Source: a bacterium (GTDB taxonomy: Bacteria; Fidelibacterota; Fidelibacteria; Fidelibacterales; Fidelibacteraceae). From it: DNA of 64,000 nucleotides. The position numbers were made by a program, and so were the translations under genes. The stretch is from contig OY781066.1 of the NCBI GenBank assembly GCA_963676395.1, forward strand, positions 1,792,001 to 1,856,000, read 5' to 3'. Shown in pieces: positions 36,095-55,104 of this stretch (position 1 is its first letter; each line of letters starts with the position of its first letter). The notes under the pieces are model-generated. The model was not told where the DNA came from and did no database searches. It saw only the letters and a list, made by a program, of their open reading frames with translations.

Positions 36095-36197
36095 AATCCC
36101 GACAAATGGAGGGGGTAAACTCTACATAACCCGGGGTGAAACCCCGGGGAAATAACTCCCTCACACTGTCAACCCCGAGTATTTCGAGGGGTTAAAC
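36095..36197 (-). repeat. REP/REPIN-like unit B (inverted, diverged)
   Basis: Contains caaccccgagtatttcgaggggtt (reverse complement of the unit A hairpin), taaactct..ataacccgg and ccccggggtgaaaccccgggg. Confidence 0.7.
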
Positions 36198-36619
36198 TAA
36201 AGTCCATTTCTTTTTAACAATCCCCCAAATTCCTGATAATAATTATTCTTTTTATGGTGTTCTTTTTGCTTATCAATATAATGTTTGACTGTTTCAAGCG
36301 AAGAATAGTCCTTGGTGAAAACAGAATAACCTATAGCCCAGGACTTGAAATGAGGAAATATTTTTTCTTGTTTAATAAACTTTGACGACGAAACTTTTAA
36401 GTCTTTCATAAAACCTGATATCGAAATATCAAGTCGAATTGATAGTAACATGTGTATGTGGTCTTCAATACCATTAATTGCATATAATACACAATTTTTA
36501 TTCTTTACAAAGGATCTGATGTATGCGTATAAACGATTTTGATTCTTATCATTTAGAACCTTTTCTCGTTTATAGGGCTCAATGATGATATGATAGAGTG
36601 TTTGTCTATATGTTCCCAT
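36197..36619 (-). mobile_element. tnpA: IS200/IS605-family HUH Y1 transposase (TnpA, RAYT-like)
   Basis: YHIII, DHIHML (HUH), MKDLKVSSS, W..GYSVF, VKHYIDKQKEHH (catalytic Tyr); no tnpB; flanked by palindromic repeats. Confidence 0.9.
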
Positions 36620-36689
36620 TTGATAAAATACCATATTTTAAAATGACTTTCTATATCTAAAAATAGAGTGTGATGTAGGTCACACTTTT

Positions 36690-37512: not shown

Positions 37513-38388
37513 ATGAAAGTACTTATTATCGGAGCATCGGGATTGGTTGGCAGTAATTGTTTGCACCGCATGCAGGAAGATCCCACCTTTGATGTGATCG
37601 GCACGCATTATTCTTTTGCTACCAATGATACGGAATATTTTGATGTTTTCGATCAAAGTAAAACAACATTTGATATCAGGGCGTTTTCTCCCGATGCGGT
37701 TGTTCATACCGGTGCTTTAACGCATGTAGATTACTGCGAAACGCACGAGGATGAAAGTTATCGGCATACCGTAGCATCTACCGAGGCTGCTATCGCTCTC
37801 GCGAATGATTTTGGTGCGCGCTTTGTGTACATTTCGTCTGATTATGTTTTCGATGGCGAAGACGGTCCTTACGATGAGAATGCAGAGACCCATCCTATAT
37901 CAGTCTATGGTCGTCACAAACTTCTTGCCGAAAAAATGGTGAGAGAACAATGCGAAAATTATTTGATCCTGCGTATTACCAATGTTTACGGTAGTGAAAT
38001 ACGTGGAAAGAATTTTGTAGCCTTTTTGGCAAAAACGGCAGAGGCCGAAGAAGAAAAAACATTGCGCTTACCGGTAGATCAATTTGCTACACCGATCAAT
38101 GCTGCAGATATTGCAAAGGTTTTGGTCGCTTTATTGAATGACAATAAGCAGGGTATTTATAATATTGCTTCGGACGAATATTTAAGTCGAGTTGAATTGG
38201 CCGAAAGAGTGCTGAAGCACTTTCCGGGGCATAAGGTCAAGGTCGAGGCCATAAGAACCGAGGATCTGGGGCAAGCAGCTCCAAGACCCCTATTCGGTGG
38301 TTTAAAAAATAATAAAATTAAGGGAGAGTATCCCAAGATGGATTTCTCAACCGTTGAAGAATACGTAGAGGAAGAATATGGAACTTAA
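37513..38388 (+). CDS. RmlD-like NDP-4-keto-sugar reductase (SDR)
   Basis: GASGLVG, YISSDYVFDG, YGRHK, APRP. Confidence 0.85.
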   Translation: MKVLIIGASGLVGSNCLHRMQEDPTFDVIGTHYSFATNDTEYFDVFDQSKTTFDIRAFSPDAVVHTGALTHVDYCETHEDESYRHTVASTEAAIALANDFGARFVYISSDYVFDGEDGPYDENAETHPISVYGRHKLLAEKMVREQCENYLILRITNVYGSEIRGKNFVAFLAKTAEAEEEKTLRLPVDQFATPINAADIAKVLVALLNDNKQGIYNIASDEYLSRVELAERVLKHFPGHKVKVEAIRTEDLGQAAPRPLFGGLKNNKIKGEYPKMDFSTVEEYVEEEYGT

Positions 38389-39691
38389 GAATATTAATAA
38401 GGATCTGGCGGCACAGTTAGAAACCATTGCTAAGCAACGTATAGAACGACCCATGGAACCGGGTGTAGATTATATTCCCGCATCTGGAAAGGTGTTGTTT
38501 GAACAGGATTTGCTCATGGGAGTTGATGCCGTGTTGGACGGTTGGCTGACCGGCGGTCGTTTTAATACAGAATTCGAATCCAGATTGGCTAAAATGATCG
38601 GTAATAAACGCGTATTGACCGTTAATTCCGGTTCATCGGCTAACTTGTTGGCATTTGCAACACTTACATCACCTAAGTTGGGTGATCGTGCACTCACAGA
38701 CGGTGATGAAGTCATTACCGTTGCTTCGGGTTTTCCCACTACGGTGAATCCTATTTTGCAGTTTAACTGTGTGCCTGTATTTGTGGATGTCACCGTGCCG
38801 GGTTACAATGCCAATGTAGACATTCTAGAAGAAGCGGTAGGGCCAAAAACCAAAGCTATTATGCTGGCGCATACCTTGGGTAATCCCTTTGACCTGGAAG
38901 CCGTGATGGCCGTTGCTAAGAAACATGACCTCTGGGTCATCGAAGACAACTGCGATGCCTTAGGCGCTGAATTTGCCGGTAAAAAGACAGGAACCTATGG
39001 TGATTTGGCAACCTGTTCATTTTATCCCGCTCACCATATCACCATGGGTGAGGGTGGAGCGGTGCTTATCAATAATCCCAAACTTATCCGCATAGCCGAA
39101 AGCATGCGCGACTGGGGGAGAGACTGCTGGTGCGAAACCGGTCACGACGATACCTGCAAAAATCGCTTTGGCGGACAGTGGGGCAATTTACCCTTTGGTT
39201 ATGACCATAAATATGTCTACTCCGAAAAGGGATTCAACTTTAAGATCACCGATATCCAGGCCGCCATTGGACTGAGCCAAATGGAACGCATGGAACCCTT
39301 TGCCGAAAAACGCAGACATAATCACGAATATTTAACGAACCTGGTAAAAAGCGAACTGGGTGATCTCATTATTGCCGATGAAGCCCATCCCAAGGCTACA
39401 CCTTCCTGGTTTGGCTGTACTTTTACATTAAATGACGGCTTCCCCAAGAATCGTCACGCACTCCTACAATACCTTGAAGACCATAAAGTCGGTTCAAGAT
39501 TATTATTTGCCGGTAACATCCTTAAACAACCCGGATACCTCGATATTCCACACAGAGTGGTAGGATCATTGGAAAATACTGATCGTGTGATGAATGATAC
39601 CTTTTGGGTAGGGAGTTGGCCTGGATTAGAAGAGAGGCATCTTGATTATATTGCGGAACAGATGGTTAATTTCGTTAAAGAAAATAAATAA
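38378..39691 (+). CDS. rfbH: CDP-4-keto-6-deoxyglucose 3-dehydrase (RfbH/DdhC)
   Basis: NSGSSANL, FPTTVNP, SFYPAHHITMGEGG (His in place of the PLP Lys), RDWGRDCWC, YDHKY. Confidence 0.93.
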   Translation: MELKNINKDLAAQLETIAKQRIERPMEPGVDYIPASGKVLFEQDLLMGVDAVLDGWLTGGRFNTEFESRLAKMIGNKRVLTVNSGSSANLLAFATLTSPKLGDRALTDGDEVITVASGFPTTVNPILQFNCVPVFVDVTVPGYNANVDILEEAVGPKTKAIMLAHTLGNPFDLEAVMAVAKKHDLWVIEDNCDALGAEFAGKKTGTYGDLATCSFYPAHHITMGEGGAVLINNPKLIRIAESMRDWGRDCWCETGHDDTCKNRFGGQWGNLPFGYDHKYVYSEKGFNFKITDIQAAIGLSQMERMEPFAEKRRHNHEYLTNLVKSELGDLIIADEAHPKATPSWFGCTFTLNDGFPKNRHALLQYLEDHKVGSRLLFAGNILKQPGYLDIPHRVVGSLENTDRVMNDTFWVGSWPGLEERHLDYIAEQMVNFVKENK

Positions 39692-39764: not shown

Positions 39765-39841
39765 TATTAACGTTTCGCAAATATGCGAAGTGCTATAACA
39801 CCGCATTTGCCGTAGGGCGCAGTGCATATTTCTTGTTATTG
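39765..39841 (-). other. attC-like site 1 (short, about 77 bp)
   Basis: tattAAC..aaatatgc...gcatattt..GTTattgg. Confidence 0.65.
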
Positions 39842-39868
39842 GTAGAGATTATGGGGTTTTACTAATAA

Positions 39869-40303
39869 TTAAAAAATTATCCATCTATATCTACACTTCT
39901 GCCTTTCACCTTCAAGATATTGATCATTATCTTCAGGTAAATCAACGGTCGTCACATATTCTGCGCCAATCCATTCACAAGTTTTTCTGGATGCGTGATT
40001 ATCAGGATTACAAGTAATCCAAATAACATCAAGACCAAATTTTTTTATTTCATCCTTTAAAAGCAAACAAGCTTTACCAGCAAAATGATTGCCTCGAAAT
40101 TCTTCTATAATACTATAACCCAGATGCCCACCATAAAAAACAATAGAATCTGAATATCCAATTCGAAAATTAATATGTCCAATGACAATGTTCTGAGAAT
40201 TAAGAAAAATATTAAATTCCAAATTTCTTAACCAGTTTTTTTCAGGATTTGCAGGTGAATCTTTTTGCAAAACTAAGCTTATTTCATCATTCGCCAATTT
40301 CAT
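39869..40303 (-). CDS. GNAT N-acetyltransferase (cassette)
   Basis: GGHLGYSI.EEFRGNHFA, ITCNPDNHASRKTCE. Confidence 0.88.
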   Translation of the reverse strand: MKLANDEISLVLQKDSPANPEKNWLRNLEFNIFLNSQNIVIGHINFRIGYSDSIVFYGGHLGYSIIEEFRGNHFAGKACLLLKDEIKKFGLDVIWITCNPDNHASRKTCEWIGAEYVTTVDLPEDNDQYLEGERQKCRYRWIIF

Positions 40304-40346
40304 TTTTATAAATAGCCTCTCCAATAATATTATTCAGAATTTTTTC

Positions 40347-40478
40347 CGATAACGGTGGTGGTATGAGGTCGTGGCGGTCAGACGAGAGTCTGAGAGTCCG
40401 ACCGAAACTGAAGTTGGGACGAGATTCGACTTATCGAATCCGCACAAACCCAGTCATGACTTATACCACGTGTTATCG
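40347..40478 (-). other. attC-like site 2
   Basis: cgatAAC..gtggtatgaggtcgtggc...gtcatgacttataccac..GTTatcg; the arms pair with one extra base. Confidence 0.8.
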
Positions 40479-40486
40479 CCAGTAAT

Positions 40487-41761
40487 TTAATTTTTTGAAT
40501 ATTCATTAATTAATTTCTCAGCTTCATTTTTTTGATTTGGGTCTTCATATAATTCTTTCGCTTCTCTAAGTTTTTTTATTGCGTCTTGTTTCATCCCATT
40601 TATTGAATAAACCAATGCTAAACTTTTCTTATTTTGAGCACTTGATTTATAATTTTCAATCGTTTCCGCATATTTAACAGCGCGTGAGGAAGGTATTCTG
40701 TAAAAACTTGTAAATTCTATATAAAAATAATAATGCCAGAAATCATCCATGAAATTTTCCGGTTTCGAATACTCATCCATCCATTTGTTGAAAACTTCAA
40801 TCCCTTGTTTCATGTCTCCATGTCTTGCACAACGATGGGCTTTTAAATAAGGGGTCCAGTGGTCTGCATAGTTTCCCCCGTAATTGCTATATAGGGTAGT
40901 TAAACTGTCTGCTTTTTCAAAGTCTTTATTTTGCTTATACAAAAATTCTGCGTAATCTCTTACGTATCCCAAATGATGATTAAAATTCCCTTTTACAAGA
41001 GCATTTAAGTAATAGTTTACACTATCCATATTGTTGTTATCTCTATAGAAGAAATACAGTTCACTAAATCCCCATTCTTTAAATTGTTTGCTTATCCTTT
41101 CTTTCTTTACAAAGTTTATCATCTCAAGAGGTGATGGTTGTGGTTTTTTTCTTATCATAGAATATGCATGGTATAATTGGGCTTCTGTTTTCAGTTCCTC
41201 ATTATTACTGTGTCTTTCTGCATAGTCGGTAAATTCAATTGTCTTTAAATAAAGGTTTCGAGAAAGCATTTTATCCAGAGCAATCGTTCTAAATAATTCC
41301 AAACTGTCTGGATTTTGATAATATTTCTGTTCAAGAATGATTAAATTTTCTTTTCCTGAAATTATTTTTTTTATTGCATCAATAAACTCATTGGAGTTAT
41401 TTGCTTTTAATCCAACGATTCGGTCAATTTCATCACCATTGAGGTCAGTTATAATAAAGGTTGGATAGCCTGTAATTTTATATTTTTTTACAATTTCTTT
41501 ATTCTCTTCGATCTCTGCATTGATTTTTGTAGATAGAAAATTTCCTGAAATGTAATCTATGAATATACTATCAGTGACTATCTCTTTTTCAAACAATTTA
41601 CAAGGTCCACACCAATTTGTATAAAAATCGATGAATACCATTTTGTTTTCATTCTTGGCATTTTTAAAAACGCTTTTGTAGTCATTGTCAAAATAGGAAG
41701 TAGGCTCTTGTGTACAACCCCAAATTAGCGACAGAATTAGCAACGTGAATATGGTTTTCAT
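40487..41761 (-). CDS. Thioredoxin-family lipoprotein with helical/TPR-like C-terminus (cassette)
   Basis: Lipobox IWGC, DFYTNWCGPCK, GYPTF. Confidence 0.8.
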   Translation of the reverse strand: MKTIFTLLILSLIWGCTQEPTSYFDNDYKSVFKNAKNENKMVFIDFYTNWCGPCKLFEKEIVTDSIFIDYISGNFLSTKINAEIEENKEIVKKYKITGYPTFIITDLNGDEIDRIVGLKANNSNEFIDAIKKIISGKENLIILEQKYYQNPDSLELFRTIALDKMLSRNLYLKTIEFTDYAERHSNNEELKTEAQLYHAYSMIRKKPQPSPLEMINFVKKERISKQFKEWGFSELYFFYRDNNNMDSVNYYLNALVKGNFNHHLGYVRDYAEFLYKQNKDFEKADSLTTLYSNYGGNYADHWTPYLKAHRCARHGDMKQGIEVFNKWMDEYSKPENFMDDFWHYYFYIEFTSFYRIPSSRAVKYAETIENYKSSAQNKKSLALVYSINGMKQDAIKKLREAKELYEDPNQKNEAEKLINEYSKN

Positions 41762-41779
41762 AGTTGTCCTTATTATTGG

Positions 41780-41910
41780 CTACAACGGCAAATTGTATGA
41801 GTAGTGGCAGATTGCGTGGTAGTTTCCTGTCAAACCGGTACGCCGTTTGAGCGGGCTACAACCCTTGAATTTACTACTGACTCGGCTATTATTTTTATAC
41901 ATTGTTGGCG
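41780..41910 (-). other. attC-like site 3
   Basis: ctacAAC..tgtatga...ttataca..GTTggcg; its right half is nearly identical to site 5. Confidence 0.8.
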
Positions 41911-41914
41911 GTAG

Positions 41915-43306
41915 TTATTCATATTCAATGTATTCTTTTGCATATTCAATCCAGTCCTCTACAAATTTATCCATATATATATCAGGTTGAATTCCAATAT
42001 TATCTAAAGGATATTCTGGCAAACGCATCATTCGAACCGTGGGCATATATAATTTATAATTTGAACAATCAAATTCAAATTCTCTAACTGAGACATAATC
42101 AATAGCTCCATAGGTTGGAGTACCTAATATTTTAACTTTTTTACTCTGCTTGGCAATTAAAACTAATTTTTCAGTCGAACTCGCACAACGTCCATCAACT
42201 AATATAGCAACTCTTTGTGGAAAACTGAATATTGAGTCTCTTTCTGTGAAACCAAAATTTGATTCTGCATTGTAGGGTATAAACTGTCCTATTTTGCCCT
42301 CCATACGTTTTAAATCACTTTTAACATCTTCAATTTCTTCGGAGTATTTTTCTTTATCTGCGGTATTGCACCAATTTTCAAGTTCGCTAATTAATGTCTG
42401 GGTAACAAGGTATTCTGCACCTAAATGTCTCACGGGATTTGAATAAATATATGGTAGTATTGGACGAAAACAATAATCTGTTCCACCACCATTTCCTCGA
42501 ACATCAATGATAAGATTTTTATGGGAAACAATTAGGGCATGATTTTTTTCGATAAGTTTAGTAACCTTTTTAACATTCGAATAATCAAAGCTTGAAAGTC
42601 TGAGCAATAAAGTTTGTTCGCTTAATTTGTCAAGATAAAACCCTAAAGCTCTTTGAACAATACTATCTGTATTGGTATTATAGCTTTCAGGAAAATCTTT
42701 GATAAAGGTCATTCCTAAATCTAAAAATTTAATCGCAACATTATCAACTATTTGAACAGAATCAAATGATAAAATATGATTCCGATTATAAATAACAGCT
42801 TGTCGGTTAGGATATATTTTGAACTTTACCTCGCCTTCGTTCCAATTGTCATATTCGCAATCGAATATAAGAGCATGGTAAATAGTGTCGATTTTTAGTA
42901 TTCCAACTTTATACTTACCAGATGTCCAAATTCCAGCTAACTTATCTTCGGATATTATTACTTGTTTCTTATAATCAGTAAATTTCATTTTTATCGTCTC
43001 AATAACCTGCAATTCATCATTGTCTACCTGATTTGATGAAATCTGCAAATGACCATCCTTAAAGTATTTAACGTATTCTTGTAGTATTTCAAAACAATCT
43101 CCTTCTTTGGTATTTTCAGCCCTTTTGATAAGATTGTTCTTGAAGTTTTTATACAACACCGAATCTTCTACTTTGTCTATAAATCCAGGATATTCATTTT
43201 CAACTTTGTTACTTAGATTGATAATTGACGTTTTGCACTCACAGTCGGATTGACCATAAATTTGGTGTGCGAAAAATAACAGTATTATAAATATTTTTAT
43301 TTTCAT
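41915..43306 (-). CDS. S41-family peptidase, exported (cassette)
   Basis: Signal peptide, FKDGHL, IIDVRGNGGG, CASSTE, GTPTYG, GIQPD. Confidence 0.88.
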   Translation of the reverse strand: MKIKIFIILLFFAHQIYGQSDCECKTSIINLSNKVENEYPGFIDKVEDSVLYKNFKNNLIKRAENTKEGDCFEILQEYVKYFKDGHLQISSNQVDNDELQVIETIKMKFTDYKKQVIISEDKLAGIWTSGKYKVGILKIDTIYHALIFDCEYDNWNEGEVKFKIYPNRQAVIYNRNHILSFDSVQIVDNVAIKFLDLGMTFIKDFPESYNTNTDSIVQRALGFYLDKLSEQTLLLRLSSFDYSNVKKVTKLIEKNHALIVSHKNLIIDVRGNGGGTDYCFRPILPYIYSNPVRHLGAEYLVTQTLISELENWCNTADKEKYSEEIEDVKSDLKRMEGKIGQFIPYNAESNFGFTERDSIFSFPQRVAILVDGRCASSTEKLVLIAKQSKKVKILGTPTYGAIDYVSVREFEFDCSNYKLYMPTVRMMRLPEYPLDNIGIQPDIYMDKFVEDWIEYAKEYIEYE

Positions 43307-43352
43307 AAATCAACATGTTTTATTTGTGTAGCTCAGTTCTCTTTTTAATTAC

Positions 43353-43482
43353 TGCCAACGGTAAGTATATGAAAAGTTGCCGATTTCGATGCTCAGATTT
43401 TTCAAGTTACAATGAAGCTGAAATGAGCTACAAAGCTTAATTTTACTAATGTTTCGGCAATTATTTATATATATTGTTGGCG
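43353..43482 (-). other. attC-like site 4
   Basis: tgccAAC..tatatgaaaagttgccga...tcggcaattatttatata..GTTggcg. Confidence 0.8.
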
Positions 43483-43505
43483 GTAGTTAATTTCATTTTC
43501 ATCAA

Positions 43506-44903
43506 TTAATTGTTTTGATTTATTAAAAAGCTGAGAGCAGTTTCAAGTGCTGTGTCTCTTCCTTTACGAAAATCCTCTATGGTAAGATGTGATTCTATAT
43601 CTGGCTTAATCCCGCTCCCTACAAACTCGCGACCATCTGGGTATGTATCTTTTTTTGAACATATTGACAATACACCACCATAAGGGAGATTCCATCTGAT
43701 TGGATTGCCAGTACTGCCAGCTGTCACTTCTCCAATTAGTGTAATGTGCTCTTGATTGTCGCAGAATACAAGAAAATCTTCGGCTGCAGAGTAGGTTTGA
43801 TGCCCGATAAGAATAACCGTTGGAATTACGAGACGTTCCCGATTGGAATCAAAAGTGAAATTAGTTTCTCCTCCTTTTTCGAAATACTTATGGTTTGCGA
43901 TTTCGTACTGTATTTTATTTTCAACATTTCTAATTGTGTCTTTCGGATTAATATTCTGTCCCCATGACATAAGAGCTGGATTATGTACTCGTGTGTACCA
44001 AGTCGAGCCAACAAGGTCATCTTCTGGGGTCAACCAACTTAGAATTTTCGCTGCATAACTGGAACTTCCACCATGATTGTTGCGAATATCTATTATCAAC
44101 CGTTTCGCACGTTTTTTAAGATCGGGGAAAATAGCCTCGAAGTCATCAACAGTCTGTTTATTGTTAAATGAATTGATAACAACATAGGCAATATCATTAC
44201 GATACCATTTAAGCTCTACAAATTTCCACTCTTTATCGGCTGGAACCAAAGGATCATTCTTAATTTCGGGCAGAACATCGTGAACCGCATGTGTTCTAAC
44301 CTCCTTTCCGTTGGGCGTAAGAAAAGCAATATCATAAGGGTCATATCTCAACGAAGTAAAAATTCTACTTATTGCCTCATCAAGCAAATGATGTTTAGTT
44401 GATGAACTTATGAAAGGCTCTACCTTTTCTTCAATATACTCAGCAGTCGGTATACCGTTTACTTCCACAATTTCACTACCGACAGGAATCCAATCGCTTT
44501 GTTTGCTGCTTATTTGGGATACTATAGCTCGTCCCTCAACAGGTTTAACAATAATCTGAAACTTGTCGAAAAAGGTTGTAACGGATGGATTGTATTTGTA
44601 ATAGACATATGAGTGCCCATCTTTTAACATTGCACAGTAACGGCTTAATATGCGATAGCATTCGTTATCACTTTTTGATTCCATAACTGGTTTTATCAAT
44701 GCAAGATATGTGCTATCCCATGCTTGCTCACCTATATTGTTAAAAAAAGCCTCATTATACTTAGCCTCTGACCATACTTTCGATAGTGCATACAATTTAT
44801 CTTCGGGTGTCATATAGGTGTTGATGCCATGAGTGATACGCTGTTGTGCGTTAGACGCCATTATTGACACGAAAATGAATACAGTAAATAGTAATATCTT
44901 CAT
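43506..44903 (-). CDS. S41-family peptidase with PDZ-like domain, exported (cassette)
   Basis: LKDGHS, IIDIRNNHGG, TYSAAEDF, GEVTAGSTG, GIKPD. Confidence 0.88.
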   Translation of the reverse strand: MKILLFTVFIFVSIMASNAQQRITHGINTYMTPEDKLYALSKVWSEAKYNEAFFNNIGEQAWDSTYLALIKPVMESKSDNECYRILSRYCAMLKDGHSYVYYKYNPSVTTFFDKFQIIVKPVEGRAIVSQISSKQSDWIPVGSEIVEVNGIPTAEYIEEKVEPFISSSTKHHLLDEAISRIFTSLRYDPYDIAFLTPNGKEVRTHAVHDVLPEIKNDPLVPADKEWKFVELKWYRNDIAYVVINSFNNKQTVDDFEAIFPDLKKRAKRLIIDIRNNHGGSSSYAAKILSWLTPEDDLVGSTWYTRVHNPALMSWGQNINPKDTIRNVENKIQYEIANHKYFEKGGETNFTFDSNRERLVIPTVILIGHQTYSAAEDFLVFCDNQEHITLIGEVTAGSTGNPIRWNLPYGGVLSICSKKDTYPDGREFVGSGIKPDIESHLTIEDFRKGRDTALETALSFLINQNN

Positions 44904-44973
44904 TATAATATATCCTATAAGTTACAAGTCTATTATTAATTGAAATATCATAAGTTTTGCGATTCTTAATTAC

Positions 44974-45103
44974 CGCCAACGACAAGTATATGCAAAGTAG
45001 GCAATTGCGGGCTTTAAACTTATCAAACCGTTACGATTTTGAAGCGGGCTACAACCCTTGAATTTACGACTGAATCGGCTATTATTTTTATACATTGTTA
45101 GGC
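44974..45103 (-). other. attC-like site 5
   Basis: cgccAAC..gtatatgc...tatac..GTTaggc; shares gcgggctacaacccttgaatttac.actga.tcggctattatttttatacattgtt with site 3. Confidence 0.8.
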
Positions 45104-45114
45104 ACTGGCATTAA

Positions 45115-46428
45115 TTATAAATCCTTTGAATTCCATCCTAATTTATCAATTTGGTCAGAATAGTTCTCAAGTAAAAATTCCTGAACTTCATATTGATAAT
45201 CAAAATCAGATTGAGACTTTAACCATTCTAATGGCATTTCACCATTTAAAGCTTTAACAATTTCTTCCTCTAAATATTCAACAAGGTCATCAAGTGAATC
45301 GATACAAAAAGGCGTATCATGAGTTTCATCCGTCCCATCTAAAGTACCTTCTTCAAAGTTCCATTCTAAATTACTTATCGCTCCTTCTAATGCTTCTTGT
45401 GGAATATCTCTAATTGGGTCATAATAATCTTCTGCAATTTGATTAACAAATACTTCTAATTGTTCAAATAACTGTTCGTTTCTCAATTCCTCAATATCTA
45501 AAGCGTTCCTCAATTTAATTTTAAATGGTTCTGAGATGAAAAGAAATATAGTCCTGATAAAAACCGATGAGTTTTGTAATTGTTTTTCAATGTTTTGAAT
45601 AACAACATTCATTTCATTAGTTGATTGGTCATCATCTAGAATTACTATTACAGCTTTTGTATTCTTATGGTCTCCATAAATATTTAATAATGAAGGTAAT
45701 TGTCTAATATTATTTGCCCCATTTAAAGTTTCAATTCTATATGATAAAGAATATCTGTGTTTTATAGGCTCAATAAAGTTTTTAATTATTGGTATATCAG
45801 TTCTTCCTTCCACAAAAACTAATAAGTCATCAATCTTAACAGTCTTTTTAGATTCAATTCTAGAAAATTCATCGAACTTTAAAATTTCTGTTGGTTCTAA
45901 GTGTGATATTTTCTCTGCTTTTTCTTTTAAATCATATGGAGCTAACAAACTCCCAGTATCTCCAGCTTGTCGGAGCTTGAACTTTAATACATCTAAGAAC
46001 GATATTTCCCCGTTGAAAATTAGTTCAATATCATTTCTGTCGAATAACAATATGTTTAGTGATTTTCCAAATTTCAAGGCATCTTCAACATCTTCACTAT
46101 ATCCATTAACTGAAAGAAAAACACCACTGGTTGTATGAAATTTTCCGTCGAGTTTACCTTTAAATGAATAAATACTAGATGCTGGAAGTGTTTTTGCTAC
46201 CCATTTAGCTTCCAGTAAAAATGTTTGTCCACTCCAAAAAAACGACCCATCTATTTGTTCCCCTTCAGGTTTGTAGCCAGACCTTGGTTCCAAATTTTCA
46301 TTTTGTAATACTGAGTAAATAATTTTCTCAAATTCAAATCCTCTTTCTTGTGGGGTGTATCTCTTGCCCTCCAAAAGTTCTTTGAATTTATTTTTAATCT
46401 TAGTTTTGTTTAAAATCTCTTTTGACAT
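45115..46428 (-). CDS. Mrr-like PD-(D/E)XK restriction endonuclease fused to a TOPRIM-like domain (cassette)
   Basis: N-terminal RGFEFE...EQIDG...LLEAKW; central LLVFVEGRTD...NGANNI...IVILDDD; acidic tail. Confidence 0.75.
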   Translation of the reverse strand: MSKEILNKTKIKNKFKELLEGKRYTPQERGFEFEKIIYSVLQNENLEPRSGYKPEGEQIDGSFFWSGQTFLLEAKWVAKTLPASSIYSFKGKLDGKFHTTSGVFLSVNGYSEDVEDALKFGKSLNILLFDRNDIELIFNGEISFLDVLKFKLRQAGDTGSLLAPYDLKEKAEKISHLEPTEILKFDEFSRIESKKTVKIDDLLVFVEGRTDIPIIKNFIEPIKHRYSLSYRIETLNGANNIRQLPSLLNIYGDHKNTKAVIVILDDDQSTNEMNVVIQNIEKQLQNSSVFIRTIFLFISEPFKIKLRNALDIEELRNEQLFEQLEVFVNQIAEDYYDPIRDIPQEALEGAISNLEWNFEEGTLDGTDETHDTPFCIDSLDDLVEYLEEEIVKALNGEMPLEWLKSQSDFDYQYEVQEFLLENYSDQIDKLGWNSKDL

Positions 46429-46470
46429 TCAATATCTACTTAAGTCGTTTCAAGGTTGCTTCTATTTTTT

Positions 46471-46654
46471 GCTTGTGAAACGTAAGGGATTTGAAAAACT
46501 TTCCTATCAAGTTTGCACGTAGCCAAATTTACGTTTTGACACAAATTTAAAACTTTTAACAAACCCGTCAAATCGCAGATTTGGCGGACTTGATTAAATG
46601 TACAAATGTTCCGTAAACCACTGTCGCCCTTATGTTTTATATACTTTGTTAGCA
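46471..46654 (-). other. attC-like site 6 (long, degenerate at the left end)
   Basis: aaacgtaaggg pairs with cccttatgttt; right end GTTagcaagc is intact, but no AAC box is present at the expected left position. Confidence 0.6.
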
Positions 46655-46664
46655 AGCGTATTTC

Positions 46665-47492
46665 CTATTTTTGATAATATTTATAATCCTTATTCACTAA
46701 TATATAATCACTTATCGGATTGTTTCTCAAATTGCCATTGTTTCTCATAAATCGTGCAAAATTCATAATTGAATGATATTCGATTTCTCGCAATTCCGAA
46801 TGATATTTTGGATGAACTATTTCGTATCTAAATTTATTCCACTTTGGAATTTCATGTCGTCCAATTTTCACTCTATCTCCGAGGCGTTTTGCACTTCCGA
46901 TATATAATTCTCTATTCTTTTCGTCAATCAAGTAGTAAATAACAAACTCTCTATCTTCATGCTTAATAAGGTCAACCGAATCAATCCATGTTGTTGATTT
47001 TGTAATCATTTGATTGTTGTCAACCTTGCTTATCCAACCAAAAACATTTTTATCCACCAAGTCTCTGAAAATATTGTCGTAAGGTGTTTCAATTTTTATA
47101 AAAGTTTCTAATTCAATCAATGTGCCTGAAATTGGTTTAAAAATCAATACTTCTTGATTTCCCCCAAGTAAATTAGTCCTAAAATATTCTCCTTTCAATT
47201 TACTGTCATAGTTTTGACTCTCGATGGCAAAATAAGTTTGTATAAATTCCTTTTTCAGTTCGTTTAGTAAATCAATATTATTATCCCAACGAATCTGATA
47301 TATTGATTTTCCACTTTGATTTTTTCCATGAATCATTCGGGCAGAGTAAGTCATTTTCTTAAAAATCACATCAATCTCAATAGATGAACCTTGCTCAATT
47401 GTTCCACTCTGAAGAAACATTGAAATGTACTCTTTCGGAATCGCAATCCCGTATTTAAAAACTGATTTATCTATCTTTTTGTAATATGCCAT
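46665..47492 (-). CDS. Putative GIY-YIG nuclease with N-terminal DNA-binding domain (cassette)
   Basis: C-terminal VIYYLIDEKNRELYIGSAKRLGDRV...LREIE...LVN pattern. Confidence 0.65.
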   Translation of the reverse strand: MAYYKKIDKSVFKYGIAIPKEYISMFLQSGTIEQGSSIEIDVIFKKMTYSARMIHGKNQSGKSIYQIRWDNNIDLLNELKKEFIQTYFAIESQNYDSKLKGEYFRTNLLGGNQEVLIFKPISGTLIELETFIKIETPYDNIFRDLVDKNVFGWISKVDNNQMITKSTTWIDSVDLIKHEDREFVIYYLIDEKNRELYIGSAKRLGDRVKIGRHEIPKWNKFRYEIVHPKYHSELREIEYHSIMNFARFMRNNGNLRNNPISDYILVNKDYKYYQK

Positions 47493-47522
47493 TTTATTAT
47501 CTGCTCTGTCTTTTTATATGCT

Positions 47523-47643
47523 TGCTAACGGTTGGTACATGTTGTCGGGGTGGATTTCGGAACGAAGGACACGGAACTGCGAAACGAGAATCCGCAGTTG
47601 GCGTACCACCGAACCCCGCCCTGCAATATGTACTGTGTTAGCC
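47523..47643 (-). other. attC-like site 7
   Basis: tgctAAC..gtacatgttgtcggggtgg...ccgccctgcaatatgtac..GTTagcc. Confidence 0.8.
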
Positions 47644-47651
47644 ATAGTTTT

Positions 47652-48740
47652 TTATTTTATATTTTCTGCTGATTCCCAAATTGCAATGAAATTTTCGAGC
47701 ATTGTTTTTCCTTGGCTTGTATAAATGTTTGTTATTGTAAATGATGATTTTGTGAGTCTAACAGTTCTTCCTTGACAATCAAATCGAATTGGCGTAAATA
47801 ACACGGCATCATCAATAATAATTATTTCAAAAGTTCTTTGTGTCATATACTTTTTTAGGTGCAAGTTCGGCTCGATACTATTTCTCTCTAGAGTTGTAAT
47901 TGCATTATTCAAACAATTATTTAATTGATTGATAAAATCTTCATCTTGGTGAGCACAATCCAGGATAAACTTTGGCGAGTCAGGATTTAGAAACAAACAT
48001 TTAAAATCAAATCCATTACTAATTTTCTCTTTTAAGGATTCATAAAACCACCAGTGGTCTTTGTCAAAAACTTTTCTATTTTTTCTTCCAAAGATGTATA
48101 ATCTTTCTGAGGCATTATTGAATACTGCTTCATAAACTGCATGACTTTCAAAACCTTCTTTAAAATTTACTGTTCGACCTATCTCTGGTTTAGGTAATCC
48201 TCCTTTTTGTAATATGTCTATGAACTTTGGAAGAACTTTTGAAGTATTTGTTAGTCGTATACATTTAAAATTTTTATCAAGTGTGGTTTTGAAATTATCC
48301 CATTTTTCTTCAAACTCTTCAATTAATAATTCCTTCTCTTTTTTATATTCGTCAAGTAACTCATTTAGCGAAAGGATTAAATTAAGCATATCCTCCTTCT
48401 CAAGTGAAGTTGCTTGGAATTGAGCAAGTGGTCCTGTTAAGTCTCTTTTTTCCATGCCTATTAAGATTGGACATACTCGTGATTCTTCCATTACCTTTGA
48501 AATAGCCCCCGATTCAAATAGTAACCATTGTGAATCTTGATTTTCTGGAGTTATACAGATTACTCCAATCATATCATTTGATAATCTATTACCAATTTCT
48601 TGGCTCCAGCGTTGCCCTTTTTGTATCTCAATTGATGACATCCATGGTTTTAGTGGATGCAAGAGTCTTTTTGTAAAATCGTAGAATGATTCTGCAAATA
48701 TTTTACTCCTTTCTCCTGACCAGCTAATGAATATTTCCAT
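47652..48740 (-). CDS. TIR-domain protein with C-terminal PLD-like (DUF5919-like) domain (first cassette)
   Basis: IFISWSGERS...WMS..EIQKGQRW...CITPEN..SQWLLFESGA (TIR catalytic Glu); C-terminal A.ERLYIFG...KCLFLNPDS...IIIIDD...F..IWESA. Confidence 0.8.
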   Translation of the reverse strand: MEIFISWSGERSKIFAESFYDFTKRLLHPLKPWMSSIEIQKGQRWSQEIGNRLSNDMIGVICITPENQDSQWLLFESGAISKVMEESRVCPILIGMEKRDLTGPLAQFQATSLEKEDMLNLILSLNELLDEYKKEKELLIEEFEEKWDNFKTTLDKNFKCIRLTNTSKVLPKFIDILQKGGLPKPEIGRTVNFKEGFESHAVYEAVFNNASERLYIFGRKNRKVFDKDHWWFYESLKEKISNGFDFKCLFLNPDSPKFILDCAHQDEDFINQLNNCLNNAITTLERNSIEPNLHLKKYMTQRTFEIIIIDDAVLFTPIRFDCQGRTVRLTKSSFTITNIYTSQGKTMLENFIAIWESAENIK

Positions 48741-48852
48741 ATGTTTAGTTTTTTCGCTTTTATGTTTTAAATGTTTTTCCCGGAAATTTGGTAATCGTTT
48801 TACTTGCTATCTAAATGAATATTGTCACAATCATATTTATCTAAGTTGCATA

Positions 48853-48881
48853 AAATTAAGGTAGGATAATCGCAATTCCAA
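48853..48881 (-). promoter_or_regulatory. Candidate array promoter (Pc-like)
   Basis: Minus strand reads TTGGAA-17 bp-TAATTT, about 110 bp upstream of the TIR start and pointing into the array. Confidence 0.45.
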
Positions 48882-49244
48882 ATGATATTCTTTTTCAAGC
48901 GTAAGACGTGAGACGCCTGCCGGTAGTAGCCTTCTTGACCACCGTAGCCTAGGCGGGGGCGGGTTAGTAGTGAACCGTTAAAAAGAAGTTGATTTCAGAA
49001 TCGCCCGTATTATTTGAGTAAATTTTTAATGATATACAAAACATGGATCGTGATGGAGGCGAAAAAGGCGCTACCATCGTCACGATTACAACGGACAGGT
49101 TTATAGATAATGGCTCTTTTCAATAGCCGCGGGTAATGTCATCCTGAGCGAATAACCCAAGGCCAAAAGATCTCAAAATCTCTCGAAAAGGTTTTTTTGA
49201 CTGAATGCCTACGACTAAATTGGGTAGATTAATTCAGTATAATA

Positions 49245-49290
49245 AAAGAACCCCATAATGGATGCATTTCCACTATGGGGCTCATTTTAT
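49245..49290 (-). terminator. Putative terminator of the DUF898 gene
   Basis: ccccataatgga...tccactatgggg hairpin with an A-run on its left. Confidence 0.55.
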
Positions 49291-49301
49291 TTTAAGCCAG
49301 C

Positions 49302-50228
49302 TTACTTCGACTCTAAATATGTTTTACTTAATATTCTTTTTCCAATTTTGCAAGCAGCCCAGGGATAATAGATTCCCAGGGTAATGATTGATAAAAGGGA
49401 TTGTCCCCAAATAAAAAGAAAATCTTTCGATTGCTCTATATCATATCCAAGTCTCATTTTTGCTTCATTATTTTCTACGCATGTTTTTTGAGTAAAATAT
49501 TTATATAACCTAAGTATGGCTAGAGGGTAATATATTCCAAGTGTAATGACTGTGAGTAGTAATTCAATGGCAATTTTTCCACAAGATTCCCAAAATTTTG
49601 TATCCCAAGAAATTTGGTATTCTTTGTATTTTATATCTACCATCCATTTATATGCAAAGTATGCATAAGGTATTGCAATGATGAATATGATGATTTGAAA
49701 TATAAAATTTAATCCGACACTTCCGCTGTTGTTGATCAAAAACTGACTCATAACTATCGTTAATACAACAATAGGAATAATAATAGCTAATAACATGATC
49801 AGGAATAACTTCCCACCTTTACCTTGAAACTGAAGATTGTTTGATTTGTAAGAAGTATTATCTACAAAAAATTTATATATATTTCTAACATACCACGCTC
49901 CGTAAATTCCCAACGTAATAATAGTAAGAAAAAGCCCTAATAATACAGTGCCCATGTATTTCCCGAATTTCCCATTGAATTCTACACTTTCATTATTATA
50001 GCTTATGTTCTCAATGCTTAATTTTGTGATGTAAAAAGTGATAAAAAATGTAATGATCATTACTAAAAATAACAAGGGTAACAATATCAGCGAAGAAGCA
50101 TCATCAGCCTGAATATTTTGCATTTTAAGAATGATAATTGAATAAGGAATAATAAATAATACTAAAAAAGCTATCCATATTGGGAAAAGCTTTTTGCCGG
50201 TTAATTTGAAATCAAAATAATTTTTCAT
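49302..50228 (-). CDS. DUF898/YjgN family membrane protein
   Basis: Three repeats of LTIITLGIY.(P/A)(W/L) and F.GKGG motifs. Confidence 0.8.
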   Translation of the reverse strand: MKNYFDFKLTGKKLFPIWIAFLVLFIIPYSIIILKMQNIQADDASSLILLPLLFLVMIITFFITFYITKLSIENISYNNESVEFNGKFGKYMGTVLLGLFLTIITLGIYGAWYVRNIYKFFVDNTSYKSNNLQFQGKGGKLFLIMLLAIIIPIVVLTIVMSQFLINNSGSVGLNFIFQIIIFIIAIPYAYFAYKWMVDIKYKEYQISWDTKFWESCGKIAIELLLTVITLGIYYPLAILRLYKYFTQKTCVENNEAKMRLGYDIEQSKDFLFIWGQSLLSIITLGIYYPWAACKIGKRILSKTYLESK

Positions 50229-50415
50229 AATTCTCCTATTAGATTTTGCTGTTTAATTTCATGTGTATTCATGATGTCATCTCATTTATTTTAGAAATCG
50301 ATTAAGTCGTATTTATTTAATTGTGTAAAAATAAGATAAGTCAGGTAAAATTCCAAAGGCTTTTCTTTTTTGTGAGACATGGAATGTTGCAATTTGTCAC
50401 TATCGCTTTTCAAGC

Positions 50416-52983
50416 TTAGCGCTTATTAGCCCCCAAATATTTATTGATCAGTCCGAACAAATTATCTTTTTCAATTGGTTTAGAGATAAAATCATTACAA
50501 CCGGCGTTGAGACATTTTTCCCGGTCACCCATTTGAGCAAATGCGGTTTGTGCGATGATCAGGATATCTTTGTTAAATTCACGTATTTTTTGTGTGGCGG
50601 TAAGACCATTCATTTTGGGTAGTTTGATATCCATTAGAACCAGATCAAGATCGGGATTGTTTTTACATGTTTCAACGGCTTCGAGACCATTATTTGCAAT
50701 AAAAATTTCCTTAGCAAAATCTTCGAGAAGTATATTTAAATAGGTTGCTGCAAATTCTTCGTCTTCTACGATAAGAATTTTGAGTGGCTTATTGGTGGTA
50801 AAATCTTCATGCTTTTTATTGTCGGTGTGTACGATTGTTTCAACTGCGGGATTGTAAGGTAGTGTAAAATAGAAAATCGACCCGGATTTTTCAATGCTTT
50901 CCACCCAAATATTACCTCCAAGCATTTCTACATATGCTTTTGTAATGGATAAACCCAATCCGGAACCTTCGTACACATTTTTATCTTCTATGTCTGCTTG
51001 TTCAAAACGATTGAATATAGCGTTTTGTCGTTTTACCGGAATACCAATCCCGGAATCTTTGACATAGAATTTTAGTTGATCGTTAGCTTCTTTGGTGCAG
51101 CCAAATTCTATGCTTCCTTCGTGAGTATATTTTAGTGCATTTTTTATAAGGTTTGTCAGGATTGAATTTAATTTATCTTTATCTGTTTTGATGTTTATTT
51201 TATGATCTGTTGATTGTTTGCTTATTGATAACCTAAGATTATTTTCCTGGGCTTCAGGTTGGAAGAAATCTAATAATTCTTGCGTTAATAGACCTAAATC
51301 AACATCTGATAATGAAATTTTTTCCTGGCCGGATTCAATTTTTGATATATCTATAATATTCTGGAGTGTATCTAGCATTCGCTGTCCACTTTGTTCAATG
51401 ATATTAATATATCGTTTTTCTTCTTCTCCGGTTAAATTGGGTTTCTTTAATAGACCGGTAAAGCCCAGTATGCCATTCATAGGCGTTCTGATTTCGTGAC
51501 TCATGTTAGCCAGAAAAGCAGATTTTAAATGATCACTTTCTTCTGCTTTTTCTTTGGCGGATATCAGTTCTTTTTCTGCGATTATTTTTTCGCTTATATC
51601 GATCCATTGACAAACAATATTTGTTATTTCATTTTTTTCATTTAAAAGAGGGAATAATGTTACATTAATCCATAGATCATGAGCCCTAGACAGATCAATG
51701 TGTTTTATTTTGTTTGCTTCCCAAAGTAGTGTAAAGTCAACTGTTTTTTGTTCGTTAAATACTGACTTGATCTTTAGTGATAATTCATCATTTTGTAAGT
51801 TTTCATCTTTTAGTACACTGTATTTTCCTACTAAATCTTCATCAGTTAGATTCAGTATCGCTTTTAGTGCTTTGTTTGCATCTTGGAGTATACCATTTTT
51901 ATCGGCTATCCACATTGGGAAAGGGTTGTTCTCTACAAGGGCTCTGAATTTTTGTTCACTTTTCTTTAGCAGCCTTTCTGCTTTTTTTCTTTGGGCTTCA
52001 CCTTTCATGATGTTGCTTACTTTTGCTAAAGAAAAAACATAAATGATCACTGCTATAAATAATATGAAAAGGAATACAGTTGATCGTAATCTGAACTTAG
52101 AGAGAGAACTGTATATTTCGGCCTCATCGAAAGAAATTAAAATAGTCCAGTATGTAGATCCCAGTGGGATGCGTTGATAAACGACAAATTTTTTCTCTGC
52201 TTTTTTAGTATTTAATCCACTAAAATCTTGATGTGTGCTAAATCCTGTTCCGTTTTCACTTCCCTTGATTTTGTCGATTAATTCAAGCGTATTAACATCA
52301 CTCATTGTATTTTGAATGAATGATGCACCTTCGTGTCCCGGTATGCGACAATATATTTGAAACAAATTTTCAGAGATTAACCATGAATGCCCATTTTTTT
52401 CATCACCAATATTATCAAGAAATTTATTTCCAATTTTATTAAGGGGGATGAGTAAGGCAAGGCTACCATTAAATTCCTTATCTTTAAATACCGGTACATG
52501 TATAGCAATGGTATTGTAGCCTTGAACACTCATAAAAATATCACTGATCACCGGTTTGTGTGTGGCAAATATTTTGATCATATGGTCTTGCCATGAAATA
52601 TCCTGCCCTATGACTGAATCCATGTAAGGATAAGTATAAACGATCCTGCCGGAGGCGTTTACTCTTGTAATTGCATCAAGGGTGTTGGAGTGCATCTTAT
52701 AGTAATCTATCAGGCATTTTTTATATCCGGTGCTAAGGTCAATGACCGGGGCATATTTAGCTATGAATGTTAGGTCAGATTGATAGGTTGCCAAAAGCGT
52801 AGAGATACCCTGAGCAGCTGTTTTTGCCAATAACAACTGTTCCTTAACGAAATCATCTTTGGTTTTATTTTTAATGTCAGTGTATATGAGATTGAAAAAA
52901 AAGTAGAACAATACAAAAAATACAATGATAATCAGATATCTCTTGGAAGTCCATTCTATAAACTTTCTTTGTTTAGGAACCAT
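50416..52983 (-). CDS. Hybrid sensor histidine kinase (Cache-PAS-HisKA-HATPase-REC)
   Basis: FLANMSHEIRTPMNG, NLIKNALKYT, GSGLGLSI, LVLMDIKLP. Confidence 0.93.
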   Translation of the reverse strand: MVPKQRKFIEWTSKRYLIIIVFFVLFYFFFNLIYTDIKNKTKDDFVKEQLLLAKTAAQGISTLLATYQSDLTFIAKYAPVIDLSTGYKKCLIDYYKMHSNTLDAITRVNASGRIVYTYPYMDSVIGQDISWQDHMIKIFATHKPVISDIFMSVQGYNTIAIHVPVFKDKEFNGSLALLIPLNKIGNKFLDNIGDEKNGHSWLISENLFQIYCRIPGHEGASFIQNTMSDVNTLELIDKIKGSENGTGFSTHQDFSGLNTKKAEKKFVVYQRIPLGSTYWTILISFDEAEIYSSLSKFRLRSTVFLFILFIAVIIYVFSLAKVSNIMKGEAQRKKAERLLKKSEQKFRALVENNPFPMWIADKNGILQDANKALKAILNLTDEDLVGKYSVLKDENLQNDELSLKIKSVFNEQKTVDFTLLWEANKIKHIDLSRAHDLWINVTLFPLLNEKNEITNIVCQWIDISEKIIAEKELISAKEKAEESDHLKSAFLANMSHEIRTPMNGILGFTGLLKKPNLTGEEEKRYINIIEQSGQRMLDTLQNIIDISKIESGQEKISLSDVDLGLLTQELLDFFQPEAQENNLRLSISKQSTDHKINIKTDKDKLNSILTNLIKNALKYTHEGSIEFGCTKEANDQLKFYVKDSGIGIPVKRQNAIFNRFEQADIEDKNVYEGSGLGLSITKAYVEMLGGNIWVESIEKSGSIFYFTLPYNPAVETIVHTDNKKHEDFTTNKPLKILIVEDEEFAATYLNILLEDFAKEIFIANNGLEAVETCKNNPDLDLVLMDIKLPKMNGLTATQKIREFNKDILIIAQTAFAQMGDREKCLNAGCNDFISKPIEKDNLFGLINKYLGANKR

Positions 52984-53174
52984 ATATTTGCCGTTCGTTG
53001 TTTAAAATTATCCTTGCAGGTAGCTACCTTATAATGATATATATATTATTGAAAATCTTATTTAACTGCAAGAAAACAAAAAAGTAATCAAAAATGATAA
53101 GGTTGAAAATTACAATACTTTCTTTAGATGAATTTTGTCTGCGAATGAAATATCGTTCTGATATAGTGTATGAT

Positions 53175-54201: not shown

Positions 54202-55104
54202 TTAGCTCATCGCTGAGTTGATCATTTCAGCTATTTTTACCGTTTTAACTCCGGTTTGAGCATTGATAGGATAATCTTTATTCTGTCTTACAGCTTCAAC
54301 AAAGGTATTTAGTTCATCCATCATGGCATCGGAAAACTCAAATTCGAGAACTTTATCATTCTTGCTGGAAGAAAGGGTACGATTCATTAGATCGGCTTTG
54401 TACTCAAAATCGCCGTCTGTACAAAGTATCTCACGTCTTCGTTTTTCTTCAGCCCGCGAGGCGAATAGAATAGCTTCTGAACCATTGGTGAATTTAATTA
54501 TAGCAGTGGCACGATCACTGTTATTTGTATAAGGATTTTCACCTGTTGCATACACGGTGTCGATAGGGTATGGGATAAAGTGTGTGATCAGATCAATATC
54601 ATGGATCATTAATTCAAGCACAATGGAAACATCAATACCATTTCCCGGAATGTATGGTCCTTGGCGGAATGCTAACAATTTTTTAGGTGTTGTTTTAAGT
54701 TGATCTTTAAGTTGGATAAGCACCGGATTGTAGCGTTCAATATGGCCAAGTCCAACTTTCACACCCTTTTGAGAGGCAAGTTCGGCCAATTCTTCGGCTT
54801 GTTCAAGTGTTTGAGCAAACGATTTTTCTATAAAAATATGTTTGCCGGCTTCAAGGCACTGTTTTGCAATAATATAGTGCTGGGATATAGGAACGACAAT
54901 ATCAAGAATATCACAGATAGCGATAAGATCATTCAAAGAATAATAGTTTAGATCCTGTTCTTTTTCAAGTTTTTGGCAGATCTCACTATTCTTGTCATTA
55001 AAGCCAATAACTTCAATATTATCCATTGCCAGCCACTTGCTGAGATGACGGGAACCAAAGCGTCCCACTCCGATGATACCGACTTTTAATGTTTCATTTA
55101 TCAT
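54202..55104 (-). CDS. Gfo/Idh/MocA oxidoreductase
   Basis: GVGRFG, HIFIEK, GHIERYNP, LMIHDID. Confidence 0.88.
   Translation of the reverse strand: MINETLKVGIIGVGRFGSRHLSKWLAMDNIEVIGFNDKNSEICQKLEKEQDLNYYSLNDLIAICDILDIVVPISQHYIIAKQCLEAGKHIFIEKSFAQTLEQAEELAELASQKGVKVGLGHIERYNPVLIQLKDQLKTTPKKLLAFRQGPYIPGNGIDVSIVLELMIHDIDLITHFIPYPIDTVYATGENPYTNNSDRATAIIKFTNGSEAILFASRAEEKRRREILCTDGDFEYKADLMNRTLSSSKNDKVLEFEFSDAMMDELNTFVEAVRQNKDYPINAQTGVKTVKIAEMINSAMS

Follow-up and report, generated by a model that had tools for sequence, protein, structure and literature searches.

The stretch of DNA analysed here, 64,000 nt long and referred to as the window, covers positions 1,792,001 to 1,856,000 of contig OY781066.1 (assembly GCA_963676395.1) from a bacterium of the family Fidelibacteraceae. 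An array of gene cassettes and palindromic sites was found on its minus strand at 39767-48740. Seven open reading frames (ORFs) spanning 39869-48740 make up the block, and each of them is followed, within about 10-20 nt, by an imperfect palindrome of the form AAC...GTT. The first gene (47652-48740) encodes a TIR-domain protein of 362 aa (Pfam TIR_2, E 1e-9), residues 1-156 of which match the PADLOC model TIR-TM (E 1.9e-48). It is followed by a gene for a GIY-YIG-like protein of 275 aa (46665-47492; Pfam GIY-YIG, E 0.0062, below the cut-off) and by a 437-aa gene (45115-46428), for which sequence searches against Pfam, NCBIfam and the PDB gave no match and PADLOC a weak one (HEC-01B, E 3e-4). 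Two S41 peptidase genes come next (465 aa, 43506-44903, Pfam E 1.1e-26; 463 aa, 41915-43306, Pfam Peptidase_S41 E 4.9e-16); their products are 22% identical to each other. A thioredoxin-domain protein of 424 aa (40487-41761; Pfam Thioredoxin, E 1.9e-13) and a GNAT acetyltransferase of 151 aa (39869-40324; Pfam Acetyltransf_3, E 4.9e-10) complete the array. The GC content of the block was 0.30-0.39 compared to 0.42-0.47 for the rfb genes. No match to the tyrosine recombinase domain PF00589 was found anywhere in the window, and an Rfam scan at the gathering threshold returned three tRNAs and nothing else. These observations confirmed most of what an earlier reading of the sequence alone (the original prediction) had described, namely the seven ORFs with their palindromes, the AT-richness relative to the rfb genes and the lack of a tyrosine recombinase in the window. 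The gene labels held for GNAT, thioredoxin, both S41 peptidases and TIR, and proved weaker than claimed for GIY-YIG, which stayed below the cut-off, and for the nuclease-TOPRIM label given to the 437-aa protein.

The sites are numbered s1 to s7, and their coordinates are given on the plus strand from XXXAAC to GTTXXX. Five of them, all on the minus strand, are full-length: s1 (47524-47642, 119 nt), s3 (44975-45102, 128 nt), s4 (43354-43481, 128 nt), s5 (41781-41909, 129 nt) and s6 (40348-40477, 130 nt). A covariance model named R1 was built from these five sites on the gene strand and scored them at 109.5, 130.9, 136.9, 118.9 and 113.5 bits, respectively, with s4 as the top-scoring site (109-137 bits on the minus strand versus no more than 21 bits for the plus strand). 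Site s2, at about 46477-46653 on the minus strand, was found by comparison of its arms to be degenerate. Its R''-L'' arm beside the GIY-YIG-like gene is intact, and its L'-R' arm is short of about 13-15 nt, including the GTT core. Because s2 is dead, the 437-aa gene and the GIY-YIG-like gene are joined in one unit and form a single two-gene cassette. A 71-aa ORF overlapping s2 (46440-46655) had no family in Pfam. The last site, s7 (39767-39840, minus strand, 74 nt), was read from the sequence and is a short variant, in which the R box is separated by a 3-nt spacer from an 8-bp L stem (AAATATGC/GCATATTT), with a 7-nt spacer before GTT; another short variant, 86 nt long, was detected in a different genome (L099). 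Neither s2 nor s7 was detected by R1. The fold of s6 is a long hairpin with paired R boxes, its bottom strand being the plus strand. The two R boxes of s5 were found by arm comparison not to be complementary to each other (CTAC-AAC and CTAC-CGCC-AAC). On the gene strand the R' boxes read GTTAGCA, GTTGGCG, GTTGGCA, GTTGTAG and GTTATCG, in agreement with the boxes listed earlier, and the division into five long sites (119-130 nt), one short site (74 nt) and one site lacking its second box also agreed with the earlier description.

A search of the 2.34-Mb source genome with R1 gave 14 matches, each located directly 3' of a co-oriented ORF. Five of these are the window sites, six make up a second array (715-728 kb; one has an E of only 0.6) and the remaining three are spread over two separate locations. 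The latter (two sites at 1104786-1107425, corresponding to L009 4786-7425, and one at 1135635-1135756, corresponding to L010 5635-5756) have no recombinase beside them, and the sites directly follow co-oriented ORFs. The family was not restricted to this genome, since R1 sites were present in 48 genomes of a sample of 151 from the host phylum and were also found in Flavobacteriaceae, Chitinophagaceae, Bacteroidales and other genomes. On the gene strand, a site of about 141 nt is built from R'' (..YAAC), a 3-nt spacer, L'', a variable centre, L', a spacer of 5-7 nt ending in C, and R' (GTTRNNN). The length was nearly constant, at 137-145 nt in 53 of 58 sites. Among 61 distinct sites, drawn from the source genome and Bacteroidota, the base after AAC is A in 60, the 5' spacer has 3 nt in 59, the 3' spacer has 5-7 nt in 58, and C precedes GTT in 59. 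The pairing is conserved in the same 61 sites: 85.3% of the cells were paired compared to 62.9% after shuffling, a value reached by none of 500 shuffles, and the covariation score was 0.506 compared to 0.153 for shuffled alignments and at most 0.076 when the partners were slid by 1-3 columns. A covariance model had been suggested on the basis of all seven sites; the model of five recovered sites across the genome and in other phyla with compensatory changes. No paper describing the site structure was found in the text searched, which lay outside subscription papers and bioRxiv supplements.

Fold energies were computed with DNA parameters. For 52 of 58 sites the bottom strand, which is antisense to the genes, was the more stable one, with the top strand more stable in four and ties in two. 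The mean strand difference was -3.1 kcal/mol at the sites and +0.56 in 232 flanking windows of equal length and the same orientation. Folding the bottom strand, as had been proposed, gave the same result for single window sites, with the plus and minus strands at -27.4 and -21.6 kcal/mol for s1, -21.2 and -16.6 for s4, and -29.5 and -25.6 for s6. Selection for the structure thus acts on the bottom strand of the DNA and not on mRNA. This bias bears on one alternative explanation, in which the palindromes are repeats of the REP (repetitive extragenic palindrome) or MITE (miniature inverted-repeat transposable element) kind, transcription terminators or mRNA stabilisers, and not recombination sites. 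The sites do lie just behind stop codons, as terminators would, and a Y1_Tnp gene is located 3 kb to the left of the array. However, the strand bias argues against terminators and other mRNA elements, and no T-run follows the sites. With only 14 copies in four arrays, all in a single orientation relative to the genes, the sites are also unlike dispersed repeats, and, as described below, they are linked to a tyrosine recombinase across phyla and assemblies break at their GTT core. We give this explanation almost no weight. The transposase gene itself is of the IS200 type (36197-36634, minus strand; Pfam Y1_Tnp, E 2e-23) and sits in an AT-rich gap (GC 0.32) to the left of the rfb genes; no link between it and the array sites was seen.

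The original prediction had assigned the palindromes to the R''-L''-L'-R' architecture of integron attC sites. The layout, the AAC and GTT cores and the hairpin folding support this assignment; the extrahelical bases do not. In the available text of Bouvier et al. 2009 (PMC2727003), the defining feature of attC sites is that the R''-L'' arm carries two or three extrahelical bases. None of 58 R1 sites had additional bases on this arm of the L stem; the arms were equal in 49, and in nine the other arm was longer by 1-2 nt. Two bulged bases on the R''-L'' arm were seen in IntI-linked sites of the host phylum (for example L130 11793-11917 and L127 8061-8193). Direct inspection was used for the latter, because in a MAFFT alignment of 11 IntI-linked attC sites the 3' arms were out of register in four of the 11 rows. 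A simple scanner for AAC...GTT hairpins was noisy in coding DNA and served only to pick sites for inspection.

A candidate recombinase for these sites was found at positions 712955-713791 of the genome, 1.08 Mb from the window array. This protein of 279 aa, P0001, passed the NCBIfam model recomb_XerA_Arch (NF040815) with 237.9 bits at a cut-off of 220, and its best structure match was the XerA-like protein of P. abyssi (4a8e, E 1.6e-44). The gene is intact, and the R, K, H-x-x-R, H and Y motifs are visible in its translation. P0001 aligned to VchIntIA (V. cholerae IntI4) over residues 16-180 and 248-318 only and therefore does not carry the IntI insert; likewise, positions 182-238 of TIGR02249, which represent the IntI-specific insert, were unmatched. 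No IntI above the TIGR02249 cut-off of 265 was found in the genome, the best match being P0001 itself with 120.7 + 94 bits. The genome's XerD adjoins P0001 but is a different protein (TIGR02225, 362 bits, over the cut-off). The earlier suggestion of a divergent integrase acting in trans was thus right in that a divergent recombinase is encoded in the genome and wrong in that this is no IntI but a Xer-like enzyme without the insert. The second array follows P0001 on the same strand, and its cargo includes Abi_alpha, SIR2, an AAA ATPase with an HNH nuclease, HD-CE/HATPase, GNAT and others. In a FastTree phylogeny of 108 recombinases, 25 IntI proteins formed one clade (support 98) and 81 P0001-like proteins another (support 94); the tree has one outgroup and local supports only, and no rooting is claimed. 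The clade of P0001, which lies outside the IntI clade, mixes members of the host phylum with Flavobacteriaceae. Many of the Bacteroidota relatives (L043-L086) have ORFs of 345-417 aa, perhaps due to an N-terminal extension of about 100 aa or to an over-generous choice of start codon. Short PF00589 fragments were also seen elsewhere in the source genome (2003875-2004093 and 2013371-2013697, minus strand, in frames of 99 and 145 aa) and are possibly remnants of integrases.

Linkage of the sites to this recombinase family was observed at the level of the locus. Among 68 loci of P0001 relatives in named genomes, 51 R1 matches were found in 21 loci. Forty-two of them (16 loci) lie downstream of the recombinase and on its strand, and the remaining nine, from five loci whose recombinases are more distant, are on the opposite strand. 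R1-type sites located upstream on the opposite strand were seen beside relatives that are 34-54% identical to P0001 (L099, L103, L104, L089; G119:C13, G144:C460, G065:C199), and this divergent layout is that of classical integrons. In the host phylum, as read from the tables of matches, 10 R1 matches share seven contigs with a P0001-like gene, and no R1 match shares a contig with IntI in a multi-contig assembly. Around 20 IntI genes of the host phylum, R1 gave no match at E<=1 in 282 kb.

These counts also bear on the possibility that the block is a classical attC-site cluster devoid of an integrase (CALIN), recombined by a canonical IntI that was lost or is brought by incoming elements. In favour of such a cluster, canonical attC sites share the R''-L''-L'-R' layout, the AAC/GTT cores and the G that follows AAC on the bottom strand. 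IntI is moreover common in the phylum, where it was over the cut-off in 71 of 201 genomes searched, and R1 sites co-occur with IntI in 25 of 48 genomes. On the other hand, IntI was over the cut-off neither in the source genome nor in any of 21 congeners, the R''-L'' extra bases are missing from all 58 sites although they are present in the IntI-linked sites of the phylum, and the surroundings of the 20 IntI genes are free of R1 matches. We therefore regard a classical CALIN as very improbable. The original prediction of a CALIN was correct as regards a cassette array with no recombinase in the window and failed on the same three points. Its remark that integrons are seldom reported in this lineage is true of the genus and not of the phylum. 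The integrons of the phylum that were inspected (L130 9902-17483 of G080, L123, L127, L129, L135, L140) have an integrase co-oriented with the cassettes and attC sites of about 87-134 nt with two bulged bases on the R''-L'' arm; co-orientation of recombinase and cassettes is common to them and to the R1 system. The array probably belongs to an integron-like capture system of the rAID type, with a XerA/XerD-like recombinase and not IntI.

P0001 and its relatives have a conserved region after their stop codons. It ends in ..ATACACNNACGTT followed by RNNN and resembles the L'-spacer-R' end of the cassette sites. In P0001 this attI-like site (..ATACACTAAC followed by GTTGTGC) is located about 70 nt behind the stop codon. 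When contigs ending within 300 nt of a recombinase stop were considered, 12 of 28 ends fell 0-3 nt after the GTT of the conserved ..ACGTT motif (11 of 27 with a duplicate contig collapsed), compared to 6% expected by chance. Contigs from metagenome-assembled genomes (MAGs) or draft genomes that stop at the GTT core are L012, L013, L017, L020, L027, L033, L035, L043, L049, L060 and L087. Because assemblies break where the strains of a population start to differ, this pattern points to strand exchange at the GTT core, as at attI.

The locus itself varies between related species. To the left of the array lies a core gene for a DegT-type aminotransferase (38378-39691, plus strand), which all 21 genomes of the genus contain. 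To the right, a GFO/IDH/MocA oxidoreductase gene (54202-55104, minus strand) is followed by iPGM (55247-56770). Between the two, the variable island of the source genome extends from 39692 to about 53100, and its right part is free of sites. This part (49302-53100, minus strand) encodes a DUF898 protein and a hybrid histidine kinase/response regulator (Pfam); the DUF898 protein was found in none of 32 family genomes, and the region is non-syntenic in congeners. With the genes at 53.2-56.7 kb of the window used as the right flank, DegT was located 0.3-1.7 kb from the right-flank homologues in six congeners (G050, G098, G090, G126, G130, G122), compared to 13.5-15.5 kb in the source genome. These loci represent an empty state, and no R1 sites were found in the scanned stretches of G050, G098, G126 and G042 (4-kb gap). 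In G005, whose recombinase is 82% identical to P0001, two R1 sites are present at the DegT locus with a different cargo (Fic, NmrA-like, FAD oxidoreductase and antitoxin-like proteins). Only the DegT protein is common to this locus and the window, and one of the two sites is 94% identical to s3 over 83 nt. In G133 a 66%-identical recombinase is located 489 nt from the GFO homologue and faces into the island. Several MAG contigs stop 0.15-2.2 kb behind DegT. The interval between DegT and GFO/iPGM is a hotspot; among congeners it may be empty, carry different cassettes or contain a resident recombinase. The mobility suspected in the original prediction is consistent with this: gene content is not fixed at the locus, and both empty variants and variants with different cassettes exist among congeners.

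The head of the array, 561 nt of non-coding DNA between the TIR cassette and the DUF898 gene (48741-49301), was examined for signs of a recombinase platform. No attI-like motif was found in it, and it could not be aligned with the attI-like regions of five recombinase loci. A recombinase remnant was looked for and none was seen, no Rfam family matched, and no R1 match was better than E 4. To the right of 48740 there were no further R1 sites better than E 0.4, with filters off. The head has a GC-rich part at about 48900-48980. An explanation for such a bare head could be that an array of this same kind has turned into an inert relic, which has lost its own recombinase and on which the distant one is inactive. 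The lost core of s2, the shortness of s7, the site-less genes at the head of the island and the recombinase found at the same locus in G133 would all fit this explanation. Yet the five full sites, at 109-137 bits, are level with the recombinase-proximal sites, and the bottom-strand bias is kept in the window sites. The near-identity of s3 to a site of another species and the intact recombinase of the right family, with its motifs visible, also speak against a relic. It was judged an unlikely explanation, though one with several points in its favour.

Metagenome contigs were compared with the window after one run holding 94% of the window had been left out as its possible source. Each of four marine or seawater runs from two studies holds 5-10% of the window's words. 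In these runs, hundreds of contigs match the arms of the sites and differ from them in the central part or past the boxes. The thioredoxin cassette is covered by a 1470-nt contig (40455-41788, run X1), and one of the S41 cassettes, in all four runs, by contigs reaching from 43474 or 43492 to 44700 (X2) or 44882 (X1, X3, X4); all of these are unlike the window beyond the sites. The pattern fits cassettes that travel singly. Near-uncovered parts of the window (the second S41 gene, the 437-aa gene and both flanks) were not taken as evidence of absence. Core joints, such as one from 40474 to 47527, were considered as excision products and were not counted, because their sides measured only 24-28 nt at 90% likeness.

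Taken as a whole, the evidence makes it probable that the window holds a recombinase-less array of five or six cassettes, which belongs to a Xer-like platform and is served in trans through bottom-strand hairpins. A cassette consists of one gene and its 3' site, with two genes in the case of the dead s2. In the proposed mechanism, the site's bottom strand, antisense to the genes, would fold into a hairpin, so that the recombinase would act on a single-stranded substrate. P0001 would bind the R and L boxes and exchange strands at the GTT core, which is the likely crossover point. Cassettes may then leave as circles and enter the attI-like site behind the stop codon of P0001 or other sites of this kind. 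P0001 heads its own array of the same sites and would serve the window array in trans. This trans action is assumed by analogy with CALINs, and the window array may still be active at present.

Several points weigh against this reading. The recombinase is 1.08 Mb distant, and the array head shows neither an attI-like motif nor a recombinase remnant. With s2 dead and s7 short, the array may be decaying. The metagenome runs consist of contigs, and the core joints in them, with sides below 30 nt, do not count as excision products. R1 was built from five window sites, and the alignment was fitted to, and hence favours, its own structure. At the level of whole genomes (table counts), R1-positive genomes contain IntI and the Xer-like recombinase equally often, each in 25 of 48, so that only locus-level linkage separates the two. 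The IntI arrays are partly unseen, because many IntI contigs stop near the gene.

Among known systems, the nearest is rAID-1, the recombinase-associated acquired interbacterial defence clusters (Ross et al. 2019, bioRxiv 10.1101/471110). In the available text of the preprint it is described from Bacteroidales as a 5' XerD-like recombinase followed by co-directional genes of low GC content, with a conserved motif immediately 3' of the stop codon of the recombinase and with intergenic sequences that are repetitive and 'reminiscent of integrons'. Each of these features fits the own array of the source genome at 713 kb, and Bacteroidales MAG recombinases that are 48% identical to P0001 head arrays of R1-type sites. 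As far as the criteria given in that text are concerned, at least two co-directional genes follow a recombinase at 713-728 kb and not in the window array, which has none; a GC content of at most 41% with repetitive intergenic sequence is found in the window as well (0.30-0.39, five sites of one family). The text further asks for a 5' XerD-like recombinase with above 44% identity to BF9343_RS08045 and for a cargo of orphan immunity genes against interbacterial toxins. The window cargo of TIR, nuclease-like, S41, thioredoxin and GNAT proteins differs from rAID-1 in that it does not consist of recognisable immunity genes against the type VI secretion system. No immunity family was named among this cargo by general Pfam, NCBIfam and PADLOC scans, which are not a dedicated test for such genes. 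The available text of the rAID-1 description does not include a hairpin structure, a strand bias or a crossover point.

The likeness to integrons and CALINs is considerable. In both systems a gene is followed by an imperfect palindrome that has R''/L''/L'/R' boxes, AAC/GTT cores, a variable centre and an asymmetric spacer that stays unpaired. In both, the bottom strand folds better, arrays occur with and without a recombinase, and cassette content varies at a fixed locus. The available text of Neron et al. 2022 defines a CALIN operationally as at least two clustered sites with no nearby integrase, and the five strong sites s1 and s3-s6 fall within 7.3 kb with no integrase near them. Defence genes are reported among integron cargo in the part of 10.1101/2024.07.02.601686 that was available, and the window array likewise carries defence-like cargo. 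The differences lie in the recombinase, since P0001 has no IntI insert and falls outside the IntI clade, and in the sites, which lack extrahelical bases and have a near-fixed length. The best sequence matches of P0001, 4a8e and recomb_XerA_Arch, place it near Xer/dif systems and archaeal XerA. It differs from these in heading a cassette array and not acting at a single 28-bp dif site, and the genome has a separate XerD.

The window adds a recombinase-less satellite array in a genome that also holds a complete platform, and a locus that within one genus is seen empty, with alternative cassettes or bearing a recombinase. It also adds coexistence with true integrons in one phylum with no shared sites, and figures that support a hairpin of the bottom strand lacking extrahelical bases. 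It is tentatively suggested, as a possibility we find less likely than its opposite, that cassette recombination on a folded single strand needs neither the IntI-specific domain nor extrahelical bases, and that a second lineage of cassette capture exists. If this is true, a Xer-like recombinase would recognise a bottom-strand hairpin of about 141 nt, and polarity would come from the 3-nt versus 5-7-nt spacers together with pairs formed on the bottom strand only. This second lineage would coexist with integrons in one phylum without sharing their sites, would cross phyla and would keep satellite arrays served in trans. The Xer-like lineage could then be near the ancestral state of integrons.

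According to the available text of IntegronFinder 2.0 (Neron et al. 2022), surveys based on IntI and attC models found few or no integrons in Bacteroidota and relatives. Such surveys would miss a parallel cassette system or file its arrays as odd CALINs. Assembly breaks at the GTT core could serve as a signature for finding further platforms of this type. The system would also offer a natural test of which attC features single-strand recombination needs. This parallel system carries defence-like genes and exported enzymes as cargo and shows turnover between the species of one genus. Given that the site arms recur on many marine metagenome contigs, it may represent an extra reservoir of mobile genes in marine bacteria.

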